Shown here: piece by piece, positions 20,616-27,616 of the stretch
How the letters are laid out: each line of letters begins with the position of its first letter
How positions within the stretch are numbered: the stretch's first letter is position 1
Origin: a virus
Length of the DNA: 36,129 nucleotides
Virus genome (UHGV): UHGV-0276305
Reading direction: 5' to 3' (one strand)
Notes under the pieces: model-generated
What the model saw: only the letters and a program-made list of their open reading frames with translations
What the model was told of the DNA's origin: nothing
Database searches by the model: none
Translations under genes and position numbers: made by a program

Positions 20616-20691
20616 TGGAGAATCCGAAGGGACTCGAACCCTTATAAACCTGTTTTGCAGACAGGCACATAGCCATTTCTGTCACGGATTC
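20616..20691 (-). tRNA. tRNA-Cys (GCA)
   Basis: hand-folded: 7-bp acceptor GAATCCG/CGGATTC, anticodon arm CCTGT-CTGCAAA-ACAGG, T-arm AAGGG-TTCGAGT-CCCTT, CCA encoded. Confidence 0.8.
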
Positions 20692-20695
20692 AAAT

Positions 20696-20788
20696 TGGAG
20701 GAAGATACCAGACTTGAACTGGTACACCGATTTCTCAGCTACTGGCAGTTTAGCAAACTGCTCCCTTACCTTTTAGGGTTAATCTTCC
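20696..20788 (-). tRNA. tRNA-Ser (GCU), long variable arm
   Basis: 93 nt; acceptor GGAAGAT/ATCTTCC, anticodon arm GCAGT-TTGCTAA-ACTGC, T-arm ACCAG-TTCAAGT-CTGGT, CCA encoded. Confidence 0.75.
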
Positions 20789-20789
20789 A

Positions 20790-21533
20790 TTATTTCTGTA
20801 ATGCGTTCTTCATTTCTGGTGTTGCAATAGTGTCAATCACACCAGTTTTACAAGCATCATCAAACCAGTCTGGTAAGATACCTGCTAAGAACCCATTGAT
20901 ATTCGTTTTAAGGTACTCTGCAATAAGAGCAGCTTCTTCTTCAATCATCTGCACAACTTCATCTGCATAAGCTGTAATCTTCGAAATACCTTCATTAATC
21001 TTACTAACAGCTTGGTTAGCTAAATCAGAAATAGTATCAAGACCTTTGTCAATAGCATCTTGTAAGTCACTTAATACACCATTAACACTATCTAGTGTAC
21101 TGTTCATCATGTCAATAGCTTTTTGACCATACTCTGTAGCAACACCCATGATACCACTGAATGGTGTACAACCAACTTGTTCTCCTGCTGCACCCATAAC
21201 ATTGGAATACCCCTTTGCTACCTGCATACGTGATGAAAACTCATCAATAGACTTTTGACCGTAGTCTGTCAGAGTTTTAGTAGTTGCTGTAGTGCTTGTA
21301 AGGCTTGTTGTAAAGCTGTTTAGAAGGACTGTTGTAAGTCCAGCAGCAACAAGTTTCTCCTTCATTGTAGGGTCTGTTACAGAACTAATAGAGCTTACAA
21401 GTGATGTAGAAGCAGCTACGGTTCCACCGAGAACTGCTGCACCAGTAATAAGCGGGTTAGAGAACCCTTTACCGGTTTTTAAGAGATTAAAAATCTCCTT
21501 ACCTTGTTCTGTCATCTCTTTCATTAAGCACCT
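20790..21533 (-). CDS. hypothetical protein embedded at edge of tRNA cluster
   Basis: ORF track gives 20790..21587, but the first 18 codons overlap a tRNA-like gene; start more likely the MKEM Met at 21533; hydrophobic N-terminal segment then Ala/Thr-rich and helical regions. Confidence 0.5.
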   Translation of the reverse strand, partial: RCLMKEMTEQGKEIFNLLKTGKGFSNPLITGAAVLGGTVAASTSLVSSISSVTDPTMKEKLVAAGLTTVLLNSFTTSLTSTTATTKTLTDYGQKSIDEFSSRMQVAKGYSNVMGAAGEQVGCTPFSGIMGVATEYGQKAIDMMNSTLDSVNGVLSDLQDAIDKGLDTISDLANQAVSKINEGISKITAYADEVVQMIEEEAALIAEYLKTNINGFLAGILPDWFDDACKTGVIDTIATPEMKNALQK

Positions 21534-21540
21534 TTGAAAT

Positions 21541-21617
21541 TGGTAGTCCAGTGGGATTTGAACCCTCTTCTCATGTTTTTCAGACACGCGCTTTAACCAT
21601 ATAAGCTACTTGGACTA
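21541..21617 (-). tRNA. atypical tRNA-like gene, anticodon GAA (Phe-like)
   Basis: perfect 7-bp acceptor TAGTCCA/TGGACTA, D-stem GCTT/AAGC, anticodon arm CGTGT-CTGAAAA-ACATG, T-loop TTCAAAT; but 2 extra nt between acceptor and U8 and an A-A mismatch in T-stem. Confidence 0.35.
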
Positions 21618-21622
21618 TAAAT

Positions 21623-21698
21623 TGGGGTGACCTACGGGATTTGAACCCGTATAGACCATGTTCACAGCATGGGTCATTACCATTTATGATAAGGCCAC
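21623..21698 (-). tRNA. tRNA-His (GUG)
   Basis: acceptor GTGGCCT/AGGTCAC, D-stem TCAT/ATGA, anticodon arm CCATG-CTGTGAA-CATGG, T-arm ACGGG-TTCAAAT-CCCGT, CCA encoded. Confidence 0.8.
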
Positions 21699-21704
21699 AT
21701 TTAA

Positions 21705-21724
21705 GGACTCTCGTAAGAACCCTT
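21705..21724 (-). promoter_or_regulatory. conserved ~20-nt motif (plus-strand GGACTCTCGTAAGAACCCTT) just upstream of tRNA-His
   Basis: near-identical copies at 25261-25281 and a diverged copy at 24326-24347, each a few nt upstream (in the transcription direction) of an RNA gene. Confidence 0.3.
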
Positions 21725-21729
21725 AGAAG

Positions 21730-21805
21730 TGGCAGCGGCATAAGGATTTGAACCTTAATAGGACAGCTTCAGAGACTGTTGCATTGCCAGTTATGCTATA
21801 CCGCT
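21730..21805 (-). tRNA. tRNA-Gln (CUG)
   Basis: acceptor AGCGGTA/TGCCGCT, D-stem GCAT/ATGC, anticodon arm ACAGT-CTCTGAA-GCTGT, T-arm TAAGG-TTCAAAT-CCTTA, CCA encoded. Confidence 0.75.
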
Positions 21806-21810
21806 AAATT

Positions 21811-21889
21811 TGGTACTCCATATCGGATTCGAACCGATACATAACACAGATTTTAAGTCTGGCCTCTCTGCCAATTGGAGTAATGGAGC
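21811..21889 (-). tRNA. tRNA with anticodon UAA (Leu by anticodon; short variable loop)
   Basis: 79 nt; acceptor GCTCCAT/ATGGAGT, D-loop AATTGGCAGAG (Leu-like), anticodon loop CTTAAAA, T-arm ATCGG-TTCGAAT-CCGAT, A73, CCA encoded; variable loop only about 7 nt. Confidence 0.6.
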
Positions 21890-21891
21890 AT

Positions 21892-21967
21892 TGGCGGGGG
21901 ATGTTGGAATTGAACCAACTTCTTCGATTTCAAAGACCGAGGTTTTAACCTTGTAAACTAATCCCCT
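21892..21967 (-). tRNA. tRNA-Gln (UUG)
   Basis: acceptor with 1:72 A-C mismatch, D-stem GTTT/AAAC, anticodon arm TCGGT-CTTTGAA-ATCGA, T-arm GTTGG-TTCAATT-CCAAC, CCA encoded. Confidence 0.7.
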
Positions 21968-21975
21968 TTAAATCT

Positions 21976-22533
21976 TTACTTTCTCAGTGGATGAATAAAG
22001 AATGCCAACATAACTCTTTCCCTTGAGAATGCTCTTTCTTCTGGGACAACACTTTTTAGTTTCCATCCAATATAAATTCTCCAGTAAAACTGTTTACCAA
22101 AGACTTTGATTGATGGGATAAAAGCGAATAATCCCCAAGCATTACTGTTCCACATTAGGAGATAACCAGTCTGATTATCTTCAGGGTTAGAACTTACGTT
22201 GATATTACCTTTCCACTTAGTAACATCTTTTACATCTCTTCCTAATACATGGTAAGAGAAGTTATAAGCTTTGTTTCTCCAGAGCCATCCAACTCTCTGC
22301 ATGTAGACACCAAGCTTACCAATCTTTCTAATCTTAGCCCATCTCTCAACGTGGCCTTTGTCACCATCAATAGGGTTGTCATAGGTCTCCATCCATCTGA
22401 ATCCAAAAGGTAGATGCCCTTTCTTCTCACTGTAGAATGGAACTACGAAAGGTGCTAAGATGACTGCTAGGGTTGCTGCAAATGGTTCTAACAAAGCTAA
22501 GAAAACCCATGAAGCATACTTCAAATATCTCAT
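21976..22533 (-). CDS. hypothetical membrane-anchored protein inside tRNA cluster
   Basis: 185-aa ORF between tRNA genes; hydrophobic N-terminus (WVFLALLEPFAATLAVILAPFVVPF), Trp/Lys-rich remainder. Confidence 0.55.
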   Translation of the reverse strand: MRYLKYASWVFLALLEPFAATLAVILAPFVVPFYSEKKGHLPFGFRWMETYDNPIDGDKGHVERWAKIRKIGKLGVYMQRVGWLWRNKAYNFSYHVLGRDVKDVTKWKGNINVSSNPEDNQTGYLLMWNSNAWGLFAFIPSIKVFGKQFYWRIYIGWKLKSVVPEERAFSRERVMLAFFIHPLRK

Positions 22534-22552
22534 CTAAATAGCCTCTTTAAAT

Positions 22553-22628
22553 TGGCGCAGGATAAGGGATTCGAACCCCTATTAACAGCTTCGTAGACTG
22601 TTGCTCTATCCATTTGAACTAATCCTGC
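22553..22628 (-). tRNA. tRNA-Arg (ACG)
   Basis: acceptor GCAGGAT/ATCCTGC, anticodon arm ACAGT-CTACGAA-GCTGT, T-arm AGGGG-TTCGAAT-CCCTT, CCA encoded. Confidence 0.8.
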
Positions 22629-22633
22629 AAAAT

Positions 22634-22711
22634 TGGTGTTCCAAGACGGATTCGAACCGTCACTAGTACAAGGTTTGAGCTTGCATCCTCTGCCAATTGG
22701 GATACTGGAAC
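22634..22711 (-). tRNA. tRNA with anticodon CAA (Leu by anticodon; short variable loop)
   Basis: 78 nt; acceptor GTTCCAG/TTGGAAC, D-loop AATTGGCAGAG, anticodon arm GCAAG-CTCAAAC-CTTGT, T-arm GACGG-TTCGAAT-CCGTC, A73, CCA encoded; variable loop about 6 nt. Confidence 0.6.
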
Positions 22712-22712
22712 A

Positions 22713-22787
22713 TGGTACTCACTAAAGGACTTGAACCTTTTTCTTCATCTTGTAAGGGTGATGTTTTACCATATAAACTAAGCGAGT
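22713..22787 (-). tRNA. tRNA-Val (UAC)
   Basis: acceptor ACTCGCT/AGTGAGT, D-stem GTTT/AAAC, anticodon loop CTTACAA, T-arm AAAGG-TTCAAGT-CCTTT, CCA encoded. Confidence 0.75.
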
Positions 22788-22790
22788 GTG

Positions 22791-22878
22791 AAAGAGGTCT
22801 GAAGTTGTGCCGCTAACTCAACTCCGTGGAATTTGTTACGGTCTTCAGTTGACACCAGCGGTCTTTCACTTGACCTCT
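22791..22878. ncRNA. structured spacer: ~88-nt extended hairpin between tRNA-Val and tRNA-Thr
   Basis: outer 7-bp pairing agaggtc (22793-22799) with gacctct (22872-22878), inner tgaag/cttca pairing; no canonical T-loop so not callable as tRNA. Confidence 0.3.
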
Positions 22879-22882
22879 GAAT

Positions 22883-22958
22883 TGGTGCTCCCACAAGGAT
22901 TCGAACCCTGATAAGTTGCTTACAAGGCAACCGTAATAGCCAATTATACGATAGGAGC
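22883..22958 (-). tRNA. tRNA-Thr (UGU)
   Basis: acceptor GCTCCTA/TGGGAGC, anticodon arm GTTGC-CTTGTAA-GCAAC, T-arm CAGGG-TTCGAAT-CCTTG, CCA encoded. Confidence 0.8.
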
Positions 22959-22965
22959 ATTAATT

Positions 22966-23040
22966 TGGAGCATCCAGAGGGAATCGAACCCTCAACCTCA
23001 GTTTGGAAGACTGTAATTTTCCCGTTTAAACTATGGATGC
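22966..23040 (-). tRNA. tRNA-Gly (UCC)
   Basis: acceptor GCATCCA/TGGATGC, D-stem GTTT/AAAT, anticodon loop CTTCCAA, T-arm GAGGG-TTCGATT-CCCTC, CCA encoded. Confidence 0.75.
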
Positions 23041-23046
23041 ACTAAT

Positions 23047-23122
23047 TGGTGGAGAAGCAGGGGATTGAACCCTGTACTTAAGTTTGCAAAACTTATGTTT
23101 TAACCATGTAAACTACATCCCC
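23047..23122 (-). tRNA. tRNA-Ala (UGC)
   Basis: acceptor GGGGATG with G3-U70 wobble, D-stem GTTT/AAAC, anticodon arm TAAGT-TTTGCAA-ACTTA, T-arm CAGGG-TTCAATC-CCCTG, A73, CCA encoded. Confidence 0.75.
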
Positions 23123-23128
23123 AATGTT

Positions 23129-23204
23129 TGGTACAGGTGGAGGGAATTGAACCCATCGTCTTACTGATTAAGAGTCAGCCGCATAACCATTTTGCTACAC
23201 CTGC
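23129..23204 (-). tRNA. tRNA-Lys (CUU)
   Basis: acceptor GCAGGTG/CACCTGT, anticodon arm GCTGA-CTCTTAA-TCAGT, T-loop TTCAATT with imperfect T-stem (ATGGG/CCCTC), CCA encoded. Confidence 0.65.
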
Positions 23205-23211
23205 ATTAATT

Positions 23212-23289
23212 TGGTAGGAGACAAGGGATTCGAACCCTCAAACACCAACTTCTAAGGATGGTAGGTTTACCAATTACCGTCAATCTCCC
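23212..23289 (-). tRNA. tRNA with anticodon UAG (Leu by anticodon; short variable loop)
   Basis: 78 nt; acceptor GGGAGAT/GTCTCCT, D-loop contains TAATTGGTAAA, anticodon loop CTTAGAA (stem has one T-T mismatch), T-arm GAGGG-TTCGAAT-CCCTT, A73, CCA encoded. Confidence 0.5.
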
Positions 23290-23364
23290 ATTAAATCTTT
23301 TTAGAGAACTTCTAAGAACCTAAGCAACAAGGTTCCACAACAAGCTGTAATAACCTTAGAAGCC

Positions 23365-23390
23365 CTCTAAAAAGACCTAAAAAGGTCTTT
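23365..23390 (-). terminator. terminator-like hairpin inside tRNA cluster
   Basis: minus-strand AAAGACC-UUUUUA-GGUCUUU then UUAGAG; U-tract partly within stem. Confidence 0.35.
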
Positions 23391-23547
23391 GCATAGTCTT
23401 GTTTAATCCGGTGACTAGAACCTTTGGAGAGCTTGATATTATCTCTTCTCCGTGACACCTACTAGGTGTTTTATCTGTGTGTACGACAATACACGAGGGA
23501 TAAACCGAAAATGCGAGCAAGCATGGACGGTGTAAAATCTTATTAGG

Positions 23548-23635
23548 CGGTAAGTAAAGGAGTCGAACCCTCACCGTATCTCTACAGTGGCAACTGTTTT
23601 CAAGACAGTTTGGCTACCATTAGCCGCTACCTACC
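23548..23635 (-). tRNA. tRNA-Ser (UGA), long variable arm
   Basis: 88 nt; acceptor GGTAGGT/ACTTACC, anticodon arm ACTGT-CTTGAAA-ACAGT, about 20-nt variable arm, T-arm GAGGG-TTCGACT-CCTTT; CCA not encoded. Confidence 0.7.
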
Positions 23636-23648
23636 CCTAATAAGACTT

Positions 23649-23731
23649 TGGCATGGGACGGAGGAGTTGAACCACTTTGAAACGGTTTTGGAGGCCGTTG
23701 CTCATGCCTTAGAGTCTTAACATCGTCCCAC
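23649..23731 (-). tRNA. atypical tRNA-like gene, anticodon CCA (Trp-like)
   Basis: 83 nt; acceptor GTGGGAC/GTCCCAT, anticodon loop CTCCAAA on ACGGC/ACCGT stem, CCA encoded; D region about 7 nt too long and T-stem AGTGG/CCTCC has 2 mismatches. Confidence 0.4.
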
Positions 23732-23868
23732 ACTATAATTCGAAGCTTACCGTATTATCTCAACACTGTAAAGCCCCTTCTCAGATTATTTACATGTTCT
23801 GGAAAACATGAGATACAGACCACCTCCTTACACGGAGACCCGATAAGGTCGTCTAAGCAATCTGCTAA

Positions 23869-24216
23869 CTAATACTTTGCATGTCTTACCCTATGGCAAT
23901 TTGAACATAGCAAAACACATTTGTCAAGTTCATCTTTTAGTTCTTGAGAGAACTTCAGACTTTTTCTATGACCAATGTTAAAATCTTTCTCTGAAGGATT
24001 CAAATGATGGAAGTCATACACTGCTGGATGATACCTTTTACCACAATCATGACAAACCCCACCTTTGTACTCAATAGCTGAAAGTTTAAGTGCTCTTTGT
24101 CTTTCTATGGTTTGCTCATTAACACACTTTTTACAGTATGAATGAGTTCTCTTACCATCTTTCATGTAGAAATCATTTTCATCCTTGCTAAGTTTGCACC
24201 TAATACAAGTTTTCAT
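23869..24216 (-). CDS. HNH homing-endonuclease-like protein
   Basis: about 116 aa from MKTCIRCK (ORF-track N-terminal extension overlaps a tRNA-like gene); CxxC..CxxC zinc-finger-like N-terminus and HNH core (YDFHHLNP ... N ... LLCSNCHRVRH). Confidence 0.8.
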   Translation of the reverse strand: MKTCIRCKLSKDENDFYMKDGKRTHSYCKKCVNEQTIERQRALKLSAIEYKGGVCHDCGKRYHPAVYDFHHLNPSEKDFNIGHRKSLKFSQELKDELDKCVLLCSNCHRVRHAKY

Positions 24217-24230
24217 GATTTCTCCAAAAT

Positions 24231-24312
24231 TGGTCGAGGCGGCAGGACTCGAACCCGCATACTCCACTTACTCGGTTAACGGCGGTTTAGAAGACCGCTG
24301 AGATACGCCCCG
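24231..24312 (-). tRNA. atypical tRNA-like gene, anticodon UCU (Arg-like)
   Basis: 82 nt; acceptor CGGGGCG/CGCCTCG, canonical T-arm GCGGG-TTCGAGT-CCTGC, CCA encoded, perfect anticodon arm GCGGT-CTTCTAA-ACCGC; no recognisable D-arm and an extra 23-nt segment before the T-arm. Confidence 0.4.
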
Positions 24313-24325
24313 TAATTATCTTTAA

Positions 24326-24347
24326 AGACTCTCTTAGAAAGCCCTTA
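24326..24347 (-). promoter_or_regulatory. diverged copy of the conserved ~20-nt motif, just upstream of the Arg-like tRNA
   Basis: plus-strand agactctcttagaaagccctta versus ggactctcgtaagaaccctta at 21705. Confidence 0.25.
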
Positions 24348-24649
24348 AAGATGCCCACTTTATTAATCATACCGTGGGCTAGTACGCCAAATTCTTTGAT
24401 GAGGGATTGGAAGACCTCACTGGTGTTTAGCCTATCAAGCTACTGCCAGAAAAACATTGTCGTTTGCATTTATTTTAAATTTGCAAAATAGACGCTACGC
24501 AACGAAAACTATTCAGAATATGTACAACAAATTTCCCCACATTGTGTTACGTCTAACGCTCATGTATTGGTGTTTGAATTATACATATTATGAAGTATTT
24601 TAGTTACTATAAAGTGGTCACATCTCAATGTCAACAACTTTATTGAAAT

Positions 24650-24725
24650 TGGTACTGGTAGGTGGAATCGAACCACCGATGTTCCCTTATCAGGGGAGTG
24701 TTATAACCTTCTTAACTATACCAGC
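24650..24725 (-). tRNA. tRNA-Ile (GAU)
   Basis: acceptor GCTGGTA/TACCAGT, D-stem GTTA/TAAC, anticodon loop CTGATAA, T-arm GGTGG-TTCGATT-CCACC, CCA encoded. Confidence 0.75.
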
Positions 24726-24726
24726 T

Positions 24727-24803
24727 TGGAGGTTCAGATGGGAATCGAACCCACATTCATAGGGCTTATGAGACCCTTGCATTACCTTATCTGCGACTGA
24801 ACC
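24727..24803 (-). tRNA. tRNA-Met (CAU)
   Basis: acceptor GGTTCAG/CTGAACC, anticodon arm AGGGT-CTCATAA-GCCCT, T-arm GTGGG-TTCGATT-CCCAT, CCA encoded. Confidence 0.75.
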
Positions 24804-24807
24804 ATTT

Positions 24808-24883
24808 TGGTAGAAGTGGAGGGATTCGAACCCATCGCCTGTCAGATTAAAAGTCTGCCGCATCACCATTCTGCTACACTTCC
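24808..24883 (-). tRNA. tRNA-Lys (UUU)
   Basis: acceptor GGAAGTG/CACTTCT, anticodon loop CTTTTAA, T-loop TTCGAAT with same imperfect T-stem as tRNA-Lys(CUU), CCA encoded. Confidence 0.65.
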
Positions 24884-24887
24884 ATTA

Positions 24888-25031
24888 AATTATCTTTGTA
24901 GATAAGCTACCCAGACTTGCTTAAGGTCTGTAGCGATGTGCCTTTTTGGGTTTAAATCTAGAATTTACCCTTTCACCCTTTGTGGTCGCATACTCACAGG
25001 TAAGCTTAATAACTTATCTACAAAGATAATT
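24888..25031. repeat. 19-bp perfect inverted repeat flanking a ~106-bp core (long-stem structured element)
   Basis: 24888-24906 (aattatctttgtagataag) is the exact reverse complement of 25013-25031; core contains further short hairpins. Confidence 0.6.
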
Positions 25032-25032
25032 A

Positions 25033-25163
25033 CCAGACCGTTGTTTATCATCTTAAGTGCTACCATTACACCAACTCGACATCTGCCGAGTGAAGGAATC
25101 GAACCTTCGCCTTTTCTTTACCGAGAAATAGATTGTTTAAGTTTTGCTGTAAACGGTCTTCTG
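25033..25163. repeat. repeated spacer element copy A (ccagacc ... gtttgctg-N-ggtcttctg), contains a tRNA 3' fragment
   Basis: shares 5' ccagacc and 3' ttgctgNaaNggtcttctg with three other copies. Confidence 0.5.
25084..25108 (-). pseudogene. tRNA 3' fragment (T-arm plus acceptor 3' strand), no matching 5' half found
   Basis: GAAGG-TTCGATT-CCTTC T-arm followed by ACTCGGC; no complementary GCCGAGT within 100 nt upstream. Confidence 0.35.
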
Positions 25164-25176
25164 TAAATTTGTTGAG

Positions 25177-25250
25177 CCAGACCAAGTTTTAAATTTTTCA
25201 AAATTAAATTGGCTTGAAATTTTAAGTAACTTGCTGTATTTGGTCTTCTG
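25177..25250. repeat. repeated spacer element copy D
   Basis: ccagacc at 25177-25183 ... cttgctgtatttggtcttctg ending 25250. Confidence 0.5.
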
Positions 25251-25260
25251 CTCCTTTAAA

Positions 25261-25281
25261 GGATACTCGTAAGAACCCTTT
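25261..25281 (-). promoter_or_regulatory. second copy of the conserved ~20-nt motif (plus-strand GGATACTCGTAAGAACCCTTT)
   Basis: matches 21705-21724 at 18 of 20 positions; lies just upstream (in the transcription direction) of spacer copy D. Confidence 0.3.
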
Positions 25282-25311
25282 AAGGGAGGGGCTAAATAGC
25301 CCTCTCAAAAT

Positions 25312-25389
25312 TGGCGGTTACGAAGGGATTTGAACCCTCATCATCTCCCGTGACAGGGGAGTATTTTAACCAAATTAAACTACATAACC
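25312..25389 (-). tRNA. tRNA-Asp (GUC)
   Basis: acceptor GGTTATG/CGTAACC, D-stem GTTT/AAAT, anticodon arm CTCCC-CTGTCAC-GGGAG, T-arm GAGGG-TTCAAAT-CCCTT, CCA encoded. Confidence 0.8.
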
Positions 25390-25394
25390 TTTAT

Positions 25395-25482
25395 TGGTGT
25401 GCCGTGTAGGAGTCGAACCTACCGAGTCTCAATGACAAGGGATTTACAGTCCCCACCGCTACCATCTACGGGATAACGACAC
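25395..25482 (-). tRNA. tRNA-Tyr (GUA), long variable arm
   Basis: 88 nt; acceptor GTGTCGT/ACGGCAC, anticodon arm GGGGA-CTGTAAA-TCCCT, about 15-nt variable arm, T-arm GTAGG-TTCGACT-CCTAC, CCA encoded. Confidence 0.75.
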
Positions 25483-25551
25483 ATTTAATTTCTATTCAGG
25501 CTAAGGACTTGCACCTTACAAATCGGTGAGCAATTGCTTCTCTCCTAAATT

Positions 25552-25628
25552 TGGCGGTTAGTCAGGGATTCGAACCCTGTGCCATTCGCTTAACAGGCGA
25601 CCGCACATACCTTATGTGCTTCCTAACC
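25552..25628 (-). tRNA. tRNA-Asn (GUU)
   Basis: acceptor GGTTAGG/ACTAACC (one mismatch), D-stem GCAC/GTGC, anticodon loop CTGTTAA, T-arm CAGGG-TTCGAAT-CCCTG, CCA encoded. Confidence 0.75.
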
Positions 25629-25639
25629 TTAATACATTG

Positions 25640-25699
25640 CCAGACCGTGTTTTTTCTTTTATCCGCAAAAAGTAGTTTGTTGCTGAATACGGTCTTCTG
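25640..25699. repeat. repeated spacer element copy B
   Basis: ccagacc at 25640-25646 ... gtttgttgctgaatacggtcttctg ending 25699; directly abuts the 3' end of the next tRNA. Confidence 0.5.
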
Positions 25700-25705
25700 C
25701 AAAAT

Positions 25706-25782
25706 TGGAGGCGGGTGCAGGAGTCGAACCTACCGATACCATGCTAATGAGACATGTGAGACGCCCTTTCTCTATACCCGCA
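25706..25782 (-). tRNA. tRNA with anticodon CAU (Met, initiator or Ile2; unresolved)
   Basis: anticodon arm CATGT-CTCATTA-GCATG, T-arm GTAGG-TTCGACT-CCTGC, CCA encoded; position 1:72 unpaired (T-C) and 3 nt between acceptor and D-stem. Confidence 0.6.
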
Positions 25783-25793
25783 ATTCTTAATGA

Positions 25794-25866
25794 CCAGACC
25801 AAATCTCTTCTTTGTCCGATTTCGTGTCAGATGAATAAGATTAAGTTTGCTGCAATTGGTCTTCTG
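25794..25866. repeat. repeated spacer element copy C
   Basis: ccagacc at 25794-25800 ... gtttgctgcaattggtcttctg ending 25866. Confidence 0.5.
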
Positions 25867-25873
25867 TCAAAAC

Positions 25874-25951
25874 TGGCGTTCCAGAAGGGATTTGAACCCT
25901 CAAATATCCACTTTGAAAGAGTGGTGACTTTACCGTTTTGTCTACTGGAAC
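25874..25951 (-). tRNA. tRNA-Glu (UUC)
   Basis: acceptor GTTCCAG/CTGGAAC, anticodon arm CCACT-CTTTCAA-AGTGG, T-arm GAGGG-TTCAAAT-CCCTT, CCA encoded. Confidence 0.8.
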
Positions 25952-25958
25952 ATTAATT

Positions 25959-26035
25959 TGGTCTCTGTTGGAGGACTTGAACCTCCGGCCTTACCGCCCC
26001 AAACGGAACGCTCTACCAAGCTGAGCTAAACAGAG
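25959..26035 (-). tRNA. tRNA-Pro (UGG)
   Basis: acceptor CTCTGTT/AACAGAG, D-arm GCTC-AGCTTGGTA-GAGC, anticodon loop TTTGGGG, T-arm GGAGG-TTCAAGT-CCTCC, CCA encoded. Confidence 0.8.
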
Positions 26036-26160
26036 ATAAACTTTTCAAACTCTATGTAACCACTTTAACATTATTTTTTAGTGGTTGTCAAGAACTTTTT
26101 TAAAATATTTTTCAGTATCTTAGAAAAGCTCTCATTTCGTTTCTATGTAGAACATATTAA

Positions 26161-26193
26161 AGGGTATTAAACACATTGTCAATACCCTTTTTA
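26161..26193. terminator. hairpin with flanking T-runs between vWA gene and tRNA cluster
   Basis: 8-bp stem agggtatt / aataccct with 12-nt loop; TTTTT follows on plus strand, AAAAAG precedes it (weaker U-run on minus strand). Confidence 0.35.
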
Positions 26194-26200
26194 AAACTTT

Positions 26201-27616
26201 TTACCAGATATAACGGTCAATCATTACTGCTTTGAGCATTACACTAATTGGGTCAAACTTCTCACCACCAAGCAGAGCTTTTAAAGTGGCTGGAGAGAAA
26301 CCAGATACCATTGCTACACCGTTATCCTTAACAGATACTTCGCAAGTGCCATTACGGTTTGCTAAGTACCAGAATACCAGTTGTGGCATCTCATATCCAG
26401 CTTTTTTGTACTTACTCTGAATTGCTTCAAAGTTTGTACGACCGTTAGCTCCATCAACCTGATTGAACTCCATATCAGAGAAGATGATAAGCTTACTTGG
26501 CATATCTTTCTGAGTCAAGTTATTTCTCTTACCTGTCTCAAGAATGCGGTCAAAAGCTGCTTGTAAGTTAGTTGAACCGTATTCAACATGACGCATTACC
26601 TGACGATGACGGTTTCGTAAATCACCACTCAGTTCAATGAAGTGAGGGTTTGTTGAATAAACCATCAACTCATTCTTAAAGCAACCTGTATTACGTTCTG
26701 CTACATACAATGCAAGTGAAACACCAATATCAAGAGCAGTAATTGAACCAAAATTCACCCAAGACATTGAACTTGAAACATCAGACATACATAGAATGTT
26801 TTCACCCTCTGCCATCCAGTTTGGTAGTGCTTTCCACTGCTCATTAGCAACATCTGCATTACCATACTTAACAGATTTAATCACATCGTATGGGTAAACA
26901 GCACCAGCATTAATCTTAGTCTCACCCTTTGATAAGGACTCGATGTAAGCTTTGTAGCGTTCTCCATCTTTACGGTTAAACAGTTTTTGGTAACGTGCAG
27001 CAGCAAGTGAAGGAATCTTACTGTAGTCAATCTTACCAAACTCATTAGCAGAGATTTTTTGCTCAACTGTATCAGATAGTGCAGACAACAGTGTGCGGTA
27101 CTCTTTCTCACTCAAGTTGGCAAACTTACAGAAACGTTTTACAAACTGTTTGTGACGTGGTTTTACTCGTGGTAACCACTTAGCTGCTAAACCTGCTGTT
27201 GCAGGGTCTAGTAAAGCTGCTTCTAAATGTTTGAAGGCATCTGTCTCGAAACGAGTACCTACAAAGATTTTGAAGTCATCAAAGCGACCAAGCTCTGCAA
27301 TCTTATCCATAATGCGAAGAACCTGCGTAGGCTCTAAAACTTTATCTTCAATCGCTTGAAGTAAAACAGTTCGGAAAGCTTTACGCTCACCCATACCTTC
27401 TCGTACATCTCGCATATGCAGTAAAATACGAACTGCAACATCAGCATCCTCATGCAAAGCTTTGTAGAACAAGTCTGGTAAGATTTCTACATTGCTACGG
27501 CTAGAACCAGCAGCTTTGTAAAAGTCTACAAGAGCAGACATTGATGAAGTATGGTTTACAGCACCATTTTCAGTTCGACCTGCATGAAGGTGCGCATGTT
27601 TAAATAATTCGCTCAT
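26201..27616 (-). CDS. vWA-domain protein with N-terminal helical domain (candidate Ro60/TROVE-like RNA-binding protein)
   Basis: 471-aa ORF; C-terminal half has MIDAS-type DxSxS (MSDVSSSMS) and downstream T and D positions (GSTNL, LIIFSDMEFN) typical of vWA folds; N-terminal about 250 aa predicted helical; Ro60 relationship is inference from architecture and genomic context. Confidence 0.6.
   Translation of the reverse strand: MSELFKHAHLHAGRTENGAVNHTSSMSALVDFYKAAGSSRSNVEILPDLFYKALHEDADVAVRILLHMRDVREGMGERKAFRTVLLQAIEDKVLEPTQVLRIMDKIAELGRFDDFKIFVGTRFETDAFKHLEAALLDPATAGLAAKWLPRVKPRHKQFVKRFCKFANLSEKEYRTLLSALSDTVEQKISANEFGKIDYSKIPSLAAARYQKLFNRKDGERYKAYIESLSKGETKINAGAVYPYDVIKSVKYGNADVANEQWKALPNWMAEGENILCMSDVSSSMSWVNFGSITALDIGVSLALYVAERNTGCFKNELMVYSTNPHFIELSGDLRNRHRQVMRHVEYGSTNLQAAFDRILETGKRNNLTQKDMPSKLIIFSDMEFNQVDGANGRTNFEAIQSKYKKAGYEMPQLVFWYLANRNGTCEVSVKDNGVAMVSGFSPATLKALLGGEKFDPISVMLKAVMIDRYIW

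Follow-up and report, generated by a model that had tools for sequence, protein, structure and literature searches.

A homing-type HNH endonuclease gene beside a candidate tRNA-Arg(UCU) with a permuted D domain in a phage tRNA cluster

Free-standing open reading frames (ORFs) that lie between tRNA genes, are absent from close relatives and are tied to tRNA-operon transcripts are known from the tRNA clusters of phages T4 and T5. SegB, encoded in the T4 cluster, recognises a site with a T-arm motif and is inherited at ~100% together with the neighbouring tRNA genes, and expression of the F-TflI/II/IV ORFs in the T5 cluster is believed to be restricted because their transcript undergoes tRNA processing (PMC2330249). 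As for the tRNAs, all those known from bacteria have a cloverleaf fold according to a 2024 paper (PMC11551756). Here we describe a locus of the UHGV virus genome UHGV-0276305, a stretch of 36,129 nucleotides (nt) that is referred to as a whole as the window, in which an HNH endonuclease ORF of 115 amino acids (aa) at 23869–24216 follows a non-canonical tRNA-Arg(UCU) gene of 82 nt at 24231–24312; these and the other features described below are on the minus strand unless stated otherwise. The HNH gene is like SegB and the T5 ORFs in the respects listed above. It differs from SegB, which belongs to the GIY-YIG family and whose activity, site and homing have been demonstrated, whereas those of the HNH gene are inferred. 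The product of the 82-nt gene, called the rewired RNA here, departs from the cloverleaf in the order of its D-domain segments. In our judgement, it is rather probable that the locus joins two separate things, a minimal homing-endonuclease cassette and, beside it, a functional non-cloverleaf tRNA-Arg(UCU). Taken alone, the HNH gene is already annotated and routine, one more free-standing endonuclease in a phage tRNA cluster; the main interest is the layout of the adjoining RNA. Neither this RNA nor the tag RNA encoded directly upstream of it was described in the literature searched on D-arm-less or otherwise non-canonical phage tRNAs and on phage transfer-messenger RNA (tmRNA)-like RNAs, the coverage of which was incomplete, and an earlier description is possible.

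The locus belongs to a minus-strand cluster of 25 tRNAs called by ARAGORN (20616–26035). A 1.35-kb region around the HNH ORF is matched by 266 GenBank records and is 94–98% identical to Felix O1-like phages (Ounavirinae, Felixounavirus). In Felix O1 itself, ORF45 (NP_944866, 'HNH endonuclease') is the same gene, with 97% aa identity, the same site and the same leader, and ORF44 and ORF47 are paralogues at 35–46% identity that also lie just after a tRNA. The Felix O1 paper counts six HNH copies without analysing them, and the rewired RNA is missing from its tRNA table (PMC3185647); for ORF45, the literature searchable here contained no mobility analysis, no target and no link to the adjoining RNA. 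An initial annotation of the window, made from sequence without database searches, had placed a zinc-finger plus HNH ORF in the tRNA cluster beside a D-arm-less Arg-like tRNA, and this description agrees with the ORF at 23869–24216, with the ARAGORN cluster and with an Rfam alignment that lacks the D-arm.

The acceptor, anticodon and T features of the rewired RNA are those of a canonical tRNA: a 7-bp acceptor stem, a 5-bp anticodon stem with a 7-nt loop, U33 and a purine at position 37, a T arm with a UUCRA loop, and an encoded ACCA (discriminator A, then CCA). The anticodon UCU (24289–24291) is read directly from the loop CUUCUAA, in which U33 and A37 are present. The placement of the D-arm is not canonical, as there is no D hairpin between the acceptor stem and the anticodon arm and only 7 nt separate position 9 from the arm. 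ARAGORN makes no tRNA call at 24231–24312, and the Rfam tRNA model scores the gene at 31.7 bits (gathering score 29), with the D-arm skipped in the alignment. In some public records, the RNA is annotated merely as 'tRNA' or 'tRNA-OTHER'. Because gene finders miss or mislabel rewired genes in this way, the tRNA repertoires of phages are counted too low.

The rewired RNA is not peculiar to the Felix O1 group, as its family occupies well over 100 viral contigs. It is found in unrelated phages, including the phi92-like Escherichia coli phage SD2, where it has its own promoter, and the 109-kb Klebsiella phage Roth50, where it is annotated 'tRNA-OTHER' and is followed 9 nt later by a different HNH gene, as well as in ~140-kb Klebsiella phages, a 310-kb Salmonella phage and a Vibrio phage. 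A 17-nt core pattern retrieved 54 IMG/VR loci, 53 of which are true members. The 31 distinct members of 82 nt align without gaps; pairing in their acceptor, anticodon and T helices extends to 99.2% of cells, compared with 38–49% in slid controls, and 14 of the 17 pairs show compensatory change. A covariance model scores members at 96–105 bits and every canonical tRNA in 460 kb at no more than 38 bits. Two intermediate variants reach 55–56 bits; both keep the layout, with an altered 'linker' and an altered segment after the anticodon arm, and one of them has the anticodon ACG. When bacterial genomes were scanned with a loose pattern, none of the 80 loci checked among the matches listed was accepted by the covariance model at E ≤ 1e-7, and these were chance matches only.

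The position of the D stem emerged from a second pattern, CTTCTAA...TAATTGGA...GTTCGA, which matched at least 120 loci and gave 109 distinct RNAs among the matches listed, the anticodon UCU being imposed by the pattern. In all of these 109 RNAs, the two bases directly 5' of UAAUUGGA are the pairing partners of nt 11 and nt 12. The pairs formed by nt 11 are CG (89), UA (12), GC (7) and AU (1), and those formed by nt 12 are GC (51), UA (26), AU (19) and CG (13), with a mean of 0.43 and a maximum of 0.60 for nt 12 pairing in a shuffled control; nt 13 is paired in 79%. At least 17 variants of the helix occur among the matches listed, including CGG/CCG, CUC/GAG, CAC/GUG, CCC/GGG, CAG/CUG, CGA/UCG and CAU/AUG. 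Within the length class of the window, pair 12-41 is UA, AU or GC and pair 13-40 is CG, GC or UA, and neither is unpaired in any member. Because nt 11–13 covary with nt 40–42, the comparison shows a D stem whose strands flank the anticodon arm. In the window, its 5' strand is CUC (tRNA nt 11–13; 24300–24302) and its 3' strand GAG (nt 40–42; 24271–24273), past the anticodon arm. Two other core pairings, nt 8–14 with nt 47–54 and CUC with a second GAG, were considered and are unsupported by the variant sequences.

Directly after the 3' strand lies a displaced D-loop motif, UAAGUGGA in the window (24263–24270) and UAAUUGGA in most family members, which is the D-loop sequence of a canonical phage tRNA-Arg (GUUC-AAUUGGAUA-GAGC in UAB_Phi87) and would provide the equivalents of G18-G19-A20. 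Across the rewired family, this motif (UAAKUGGA) stands 3' of the anticodon arm, with the T arm to follow, so that the gene reads acceptor, U8-A9-N, one D-stem strand, N, anticodon arm, a spacer of 6–13 nt, the other D-stem strand, D loop, 4–9 nt and T arm. On this alignment, the D/anticodon domain is best described as internally permuted, equivalent to the canonical order with block 10–48 circularly permuted at the 21/22 junction. The resulting order is D 3'-strand equivalent, residue 26, anticodon arm, spacer, D 5'-strand equivalent and D loop. In the canonical L-shape, residues 8, 14, 21, 22 and 48 are mutually adjacent, as are 10 and 44–45, and because of this proximity the new joins look sterically easy.

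These comparisons bear directly on one suggestion of the initial annotation, namely that the abnormal tRNA reflects insertion damage. If the tRNA had lost its D-arm when the HNH gene inserted and were now a pseudogene, one could cite the missing ARAGORN call, the absence of the gene from the 22 tRNAs of Felix O1 in the Felix O1 paper and the fact that the tRNA directly abuts the cassette. However, the tRNA is identical base for base in HNH-free phages, the insertion lies 3' of the CCA and away from the D region, and the same architecture recurs across unrelated phages, in a large family under strong structural selection, with massive compensatory covariation and covariance-model scores far from those of canonical tRNAs. 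As the defect is not confined to genomes with the insertion and compensatory changes are present, assignment to a pseudogene or insertion-damage class was refuted, and we regard an origin by damage as scarcely credible.

Several natural RNAs resemble the rewired RNA in part. Metazoan mitochondrial tRNAs that lack the D-arm (tRNA-Ser(AGY/N) and the minimal tRNAs of nematodes and mites) likewise have no D hairpin before the anticodon arm, and they are functional adaptors (PMC2797822; PMC12221289). They differ in that their D-arm is lost and adapted partners are needed, whereas the rewired RNA keeps the D stem and the D-loop sequence in a new order together with a canonical T arm and elbow, and it would have to use ordinary bacterial arginyl-tRNA synthetase (ArgRS), EF-Tu and ribosomes. 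Permuted and split tRNA genes of the red alga Cyanidioschyzon and of Archaea also have a segment order that departs from the cloverleaf (PMC3218864); in these, processing restores a canonical mature tRNA and the permutation point lies at the gene ends. In contrast, the rewired RNA has normal 5' and 3' ends, and an internal permutation would persist in the mature RNA. A further comparison is with canonical phage tRNA-Arg(UCU) genes, for example those of UAB_Phi87, Sf16 and Erwinia phage Omen, which share the genomic site, the anticodon loop CUUCUAA, the D-loop AAUUGGA, the T loop UUCGA and an encoded CCA, and differ in having the D hairpin 5' of the anticodon arm and a length of 74–77 nt.

The anticodons of the rewired family are exclusively those of arginine, with UCU in nearly all members and CCU and ACG once each, and UCU was not imposed by the first pattern. 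Bacterial ArgRS recognises an identity set of A20, C35, U/G36 and A/G73 (PMC9976931). The rewired family keeps GGA, the G18-G19-A20 equivalent, in the displaced D loop, together with C35, U36 and mostly A/G73, the discriminator being A in the window; at the level of sequence, the ArgRS identity elements are thus present. Moreover, the rewired gene shares its genomic site with a canonical one. In the Felixounavirus UAB_Phi87, which has no HNH gene, a canonical tRNA-Arg(UCU) stands between the same upstream hairpin and the same AGTTAGCAG, and in Sf16 a canonical tRNA-Arg(TCT) at this site is followed by an orthologous HNH gene; these canonical alleles measure 74–77 nt, compared with 82 nt in the window. 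Among GenBank records with at least 80% coverage, ~113 carry the canonical and at least 102 the rewired allele, so that roughly half of the relatives have a canonical tRNA-Arg(UCU) at the site. In the window, no canonical tRNA-Arg(UCU) is found among the ARAGORN calls, and AGA accounts for 170 of the 322 Arg codons (52.8%) in 25 long ORFs. Large tRNA clusters with the rewired gene mostly lack a canonical Arg(UCU) as well.

In the reading that we prefer, of a functional tRNA-Arg(UCU), the ArgRS of E. coli or Salmonella would charge the rewired RNA, and it would read the very frequent AGA codons of the phage, replacing the canonical phage tRNA-Arg(UCU) of other relatives. As a more far-reaching possibility, which we hold with less than even confidence, the rewired RNA is truly arginylated and serves on the ribosome as an elongator tRNA that has its D stem-loop circularly permuted round the anticodon arm and works with ordinary bacterial ArgRS, EF-Tu and ribosomes. 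Such a tRNA would be widespread (Felixounavirus, phi92-like phages, ~110-kb and jumbo phages and many uncultured viruses); in Felixounavirus, it would be an alternative allele to the canonical tRNA-Arg(UCU), possibly escaping tRNA-directed host defence, and its gene would be a recurrent landing site for homing endonucleases. Some points weigh against a functional tRNA. Expression, processing, charging and decoding of the rewired RNA are predictions from its sequence; the rewired D stem has only 3 bp; the invariant core of the first set was partly imposed by the 17-nt search pattern; the ease of the new joins comes from reasoning on the canonical L-shape rather than from computation; and one contig (L040) carries a canonical and a rewired tRNA-Arg(UCU) side by side, which means that the two are not strictly interchangeable.

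The last point also enters a different explanation, in which the rewired RNA acts outside translation as a mimic of tRNA-Arg, for example as a decoy that engages an anticodon nuclease or some other defence directed at tRNAs, or as a ligand of the DUF2828/DUF7788 protein encoded beside the cluster. A non-cloverleaf core might suit EF-Tu or the ribosome poorly, the bacterial tRNAs known so far are all reported to be cloverleafs (PMC11551756), strict conservation of the anticodon loop is what a decoy would need, both genes occur together in L040, and a gene for a putative RNA-binding protein flanks the cluster. Against this, the complete ArgRS identity set, the GG/T-loop elbow elements, the 7-bp acceptor stem and the CCA have all been kept, in about half of the relatives the rewired gene replaces a canonical tRNA-Arg(UCU) at the same site, large tRNA sets carrying the rewired gene are usually without a canonical Arg(UCU), and AGA is the main Arg codon of the phage. 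We consider a mimic rather doubtful, and the functional tRNA remains our preferred reading.

The importance of the RNA lies in this combination: a strongly covarying phage family has kept all the elements of an arginine tRNA with the D stem and D loop joined in another order, and its gene takes the place in the genome of a normal tRNA-Arg(UCU), in phages that have AGA as their commonest Arg codon. If it is charged and decodes, it would show how much of the tRNA core topology is needed by the bacterial translation machinery and would offer a natural scaffold for engineered orthogonal tRNAs. It would also raise the question of which selective pressure favoured the rewired core, with tRNA-cleaving defences, modification enzymes and the phage's own nucleases as candidates.

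The HNH ORF begins with ATG at 24216, 14 nt after the CCA of the rewired RNA, and ends with the stop codon TAG at 23871–23869. A Shine-Dalgarno sequence, GGAG (24222–24225), lies 5 nt upstream of the ATG in a leader that is conserved in Felix O1 and Sf16. Public calls are longer (130 aa; 26003–26395 in the Felix O1 sequence for ORF45, and protein clusters P0001–P0003) and begin within the rewired tRNA gene, as would a GTG-initiated reading of the ORF in the window. The 115-aa form, with GGAG as its putative ribosome-binding site, is supported because homologues begin at MK.C. The protein combines an N-terminal Cys4 zinc ribbon with a CxxC...HH...N...CxxCH..H HNH domain. In an alignment of 37 homologues, the ribbon cysteines C4, C7, C28 and C31 and the CxxC pairs of the structural zinc site (C55/C58 and C104/C107) are invariant, as are F69-H70-H71, H108 and H112 among the catalytic and metal-binding residues, and N106 is found in at least 90%. 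The protein thus has the HH...N...H arrangement of the HNH superfamily (catalytic His, Asn and metal-binding His), and its predicted fold includes the beta-beta-alpha-metal motif. It matches PHROG 2255 'HNH endonuclease' (E 1e-39), and its closest sequence match in the PDB is the HNH domain of McrA (E 0.0023). Two results fit less well: the Pfam HNH model PF01844 gives 16.7 bits, under its 21.4-bit gathering score, and a Foldseek search of the PDB gave no significant hits. As judged from sequence and predicted fold, the protein is an intact zinc-ribbon plus HNH nuclease.

The comparison with HNH-less relatives showed that the gene is cleanly absent from most of them and that the flanking tRNA is identical with and without it. 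The unit that comes and goes is a cassette of ~357 bp (23871–24227, boundaries ambiguous by 1–3 nt in T/A runs), which consists of a 14-nt leader with the ribosome-binding site and the ORF and nothing else. At the right junction stands an anchor, AGTTAGCAG (23862–23870), that is common to sites with and without the cassette. The AG of the stop codon belongs to this anchor, so that the final two bases of the codon come from the target and not from the insert. The empty site reads ...ACCA-ATT(T) followed directly by AGTTAGCAG. By alignment, the cassette is present in the window, Felix O1, VpaE1_ev78 and SP22 and absent from VSe11, and across 18 Felix-type loci the spacing from the CCA to AGTTAGCAG is 3–4 nt in the 11 HNH-minus loci and 360–361 nt in the 7 HNH-plus loci. 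The cassette occurs in 26 of the 266 records (24 different phages) with 95.8–100% identity, and two further records, from Mooglevirus, carry it at 84% identity. There are two haplotypes of the downstream flank, which diverge from 10 bp past the junction, and each is seen with and without the cassette; hapB is enriched in HNH-plus loci (4/6 compared with 1/11 HNH-minus loci), the samples being related. This pattern hints at movement of the cassette between backgrounds with short co-conversion tracts.

Relatives of the protein are found in similar positions. The Mooglevirus Sf16 ortholog (87% aa identity) occupies the syntenic site, 15 nt after a canonical tRNA-Arg(TCT). Three metagenomic homologues with 51–66% identity start 14–22 nt after a tRNA CCA in phage tRNA clusters, one of them (L012) after a canonical tRNA-Arg(tct), and the paralogues ORF44 and ORF47 of Felix O1 and an additional coding sequence of VpaE1_ev78 (35–48% identity) likewise lie just after a tRNA. 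All of these homologues and the three Felix-group paralogues begin 12–22 nt after a tRNA CCA. Because the indel is clean and homologues and paralogues always lie directly after a tRNA CCA, the sequence comparisons well support the ORF as a free-standing gene of the homing type, in keeping with the initial annotation, which had placed it among the free-standing homing endonucleases of phage tRNA regions; the clean ~357-bp polymorphism, its occurrence on both flank haplotypes and the homologues after tRNA genes all lend support to that view. A homing-type gene of this kind would have inserted in the spacer 3' of the tRNA-Arg(UCU) gene. When an HNH-less relative infects the same cell, the nuclease would nick or cut the relative's DNA at or near the empty site, and recombinational repair would then copy the cassette into that relative. 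The phage that carries the cassette would most likely be protected by the insertion itself, which splits the site between CCAATT and TAGTTAGCAG.

Part of the evidence weighs against recent mobility. Divergence between HNH copies tracks flank divergence (95.8–100% within the genus, 84% with Mooglevirus) and therefore does not point to a recent sweep; the distribution of the cassette could also have arisen through repeated loss or ordinary recombination; and all 26 Felixounavirus cassettes are on the rewired-tRNA allele, a linkage that could reflect a single origin. The HNH gene may accordingly be an old resident that most lineages are simply losing through deletion or recombination and that is no longer active, or was never active, as a homing element, perhaps being a domesticated nuclease with another role. 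Parallel divergence of copy and flank, linkage of every Felixounavirus copy to one tRNA allele and an ortholog at the same site in the sister genus all point that way. On the other hand, 11 loci have an empty site that is base-exact, the cassette contains a ribosome-binding site and an ORF only, it is found on both downstream haplotypes, every catalytic residue and zinc ligand has been kept, and the protein family as a whole occurs, across different phages, in tRNA spacers only, as is typical of site-specific invaders. We judge long residence without homing to be unlikely and prefer the homing-type gene.

The initial annotation had offered, in place of damage, that the adjacent tRNA might be a cleavage-resistant variant. 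In a developed form of this idea, the rewired tRNA is an allele immune to cleavage, the HNH enzyme cuts the canonical tRNA-Arg(UCU) of competitors and the rewired allele has spread by co-conversion. This would agree with the 26 Felixounavirus HNH copies that stand beside the rewired allele and none beside the canonical one, with at least three other kinds of endonuclease that start within 40 nt after the rewired RNA in other phages, and with the precedent of SegB for tRNA-sequence targeting and co-conversion of tRNA genes. Nevertheless, orthologous and homologous genes of the same HNH lineage lie directly after a canonical tRNA-Arg(UCU) in Sf16 and L012, and rewired alleles without the HNH gene are ~3 times commoner than those with it. 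Both types of tRNA occur without the HNH gene, and in the sequences compared no tRNA polymorphism separates HNH-plus from HNH-minus genomes. These findings speak against resistance, and we consider an immune allele improbable. Since the rewired and the canonical tRNA are each found both with and without the HNH gene, the type of tRNA is neither caused by the insertion nor required for it, and the linkage of the 26 Felixounavirus copies to the rewired allele could reflect descent or co-conversion. Endonuclease-like ORFs start within 40 nt after the rewired RNA in at least five other lineages, with Pfam HNH_3 proteins in Roth50, L042 and L049, a RAP/PD-(D/E)XK-like protein in L044 and an unassigned ORF in L026. 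This suggests, in a comparison that has no baseline frequency behind it, that the highly conserved rewired tRNA gene is a favoured landing place for endonucleases.

With regard to transcription, a Sigma-70-type site at 24634–24606 (TTGACA-17-TATAGT, 11/12 matches), which is kept in Sf16, is the promoter that lies closest upstream of the series formed by the tag RNA, the rewired tRNA and the HNH gene, and a promoter/terminator scan detected no terminator-like site between it and the HNH ORF. As this promoter is strong and no terminator-like site precedes the ORF, the HNH mRNA probably belongs to the tRNA operon transcript that would start there.

Directly upstream of the rewired tRNA lies a conserved non-coding RNA (24313–24600), the tag RNA mentioned above, which may be more novel than the HNH gene and the tRNA. 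Its tag frame (24467–24435) has a tmRNA-like resume context, ...AAAAUAAAU GCA AAC GAC AAU GUU UUU CUG GCA GUA GCU UGA, which would encode ANDNVFLAVA and a stop. Homologues are found in Mooglevirus, Erwinia phage Omen, Agtrevirus SKML-39 and the Klebsiella siphophage KpV2811, in 339 E. coli genomes (the one locus examined is a lambdoid prophage, with the RNA between Q and the holin gene) and in 786 plasmids of ~110 kb. Their tags are ANDNAYLAVA, ANEEMYLAVA and ANDAQFLAVA, the last four codons vary only synonymously, and no conserved start codon was seen among the homologues compared. As read from the sequences, a 4-bp hairpin has the stop codon in its loop, and the hairpins further downstream covary. 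No tRNA-like domain of the alanine type was found. Rfam tmRNA models score the tag RNA at 16–20 bits, below their gathering score of 47. A tmRNA has been reported for Felix O1 (PMC4392139) and could not be located here: ARAGORN 1.2.41 with default settings calls none in the window and none in any part of Felix O1, and a relaxed run gave only a permuted tmRNA call that reuses upstream tRNAs. The rewired tRNA-like gene was itself considered as the tRNA-like domain of a tmRNA, given G3:U70 and A73 in the copy of the window and the tmRNA-like tag upstream. This was rejected, as G3:U70 is not conserved (G3-C70 in SD2), all anticodons are those of Arg, the tRNA-like gene is self-contained, and the tag RNA and the tRNA occur independently of each other in other phages.

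Two segments of the tag RNA region vary between relatives. A hairpin just 5' of the rewired tRNA (24318–24352; AUCUUUAA...UUAAAGAU) is replaced in Felix O1 and Sf16 (L002/L006 and L190 equivalents) by a longer hairpin of other sequence, which covaries between these two phages (AAAGGGUA/UACCCUUU and AAAGAGCA/UGCUCUUU) and resembles the terminal stem of the tag RNA in the prophage and siphophage copies. Between the promoter and the conserved 5' end of the tag RNA (UAGUUUUCGU), an AU-rich segment of ~77 nt (24513–24590) is present in the window, Felix O1, VSe11 and SP22 and absent from VpaE1_ev78, Sf16 and several IMG/VR relatives, in which the promoter abuts the tag RNA.

Elsewhere in the setting, the gene directly upstream of the tRNA cluster (26201–27616) encodes a 471-aa protein with Pfam DUF2828 and DUF7788; its Felix O1 counterpart (ORF42) bears the RefSeq label 'RNA-binding protein', and a search for sequence relatives in the PDB returned none. 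Within the cluster, a gene at 21976–22533 encodes a DUF7338 protein of 185 aa, a family that is also seen beside an HNH homologue in L015, a metagenomic tRNA cluster. Between tRNA-Lys and tRNA-Asp, in a gap of 430 bp, a tRNA 3' half (T arm and acceptor strand, GGCGAAGGUUCGAUUCCUUCACUCGGCA) stands alone at ~25085–25115, apparently as a tRNA remnant, and its stem is also listed, for the plus strand, among the terminator-like sites of the promoter/terminator scan. A second non-canonical tRNA-like gene, at 23649–23731 with a promoter-like site just upstream (23763–23735), has the anticodon CCA (Trp) in a 9-nt loop, CCUCCAAAA, and additional bases ahead of a CUC/GAG D stem, and matches solely the Rfam tRNA-Sec model, at 21 bits. 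It is kept in Mooglevirus Sf16 with compensatory changes relative to the window, from CUC/GAG to CAC/GUG in the D stem and from AACGG/CCGUU to GUAAG/CUUAC in the anticodon stem, and in VpaE1_ev78 its place is taken by a canonical tRNA-Trp and an HNH paralogue.

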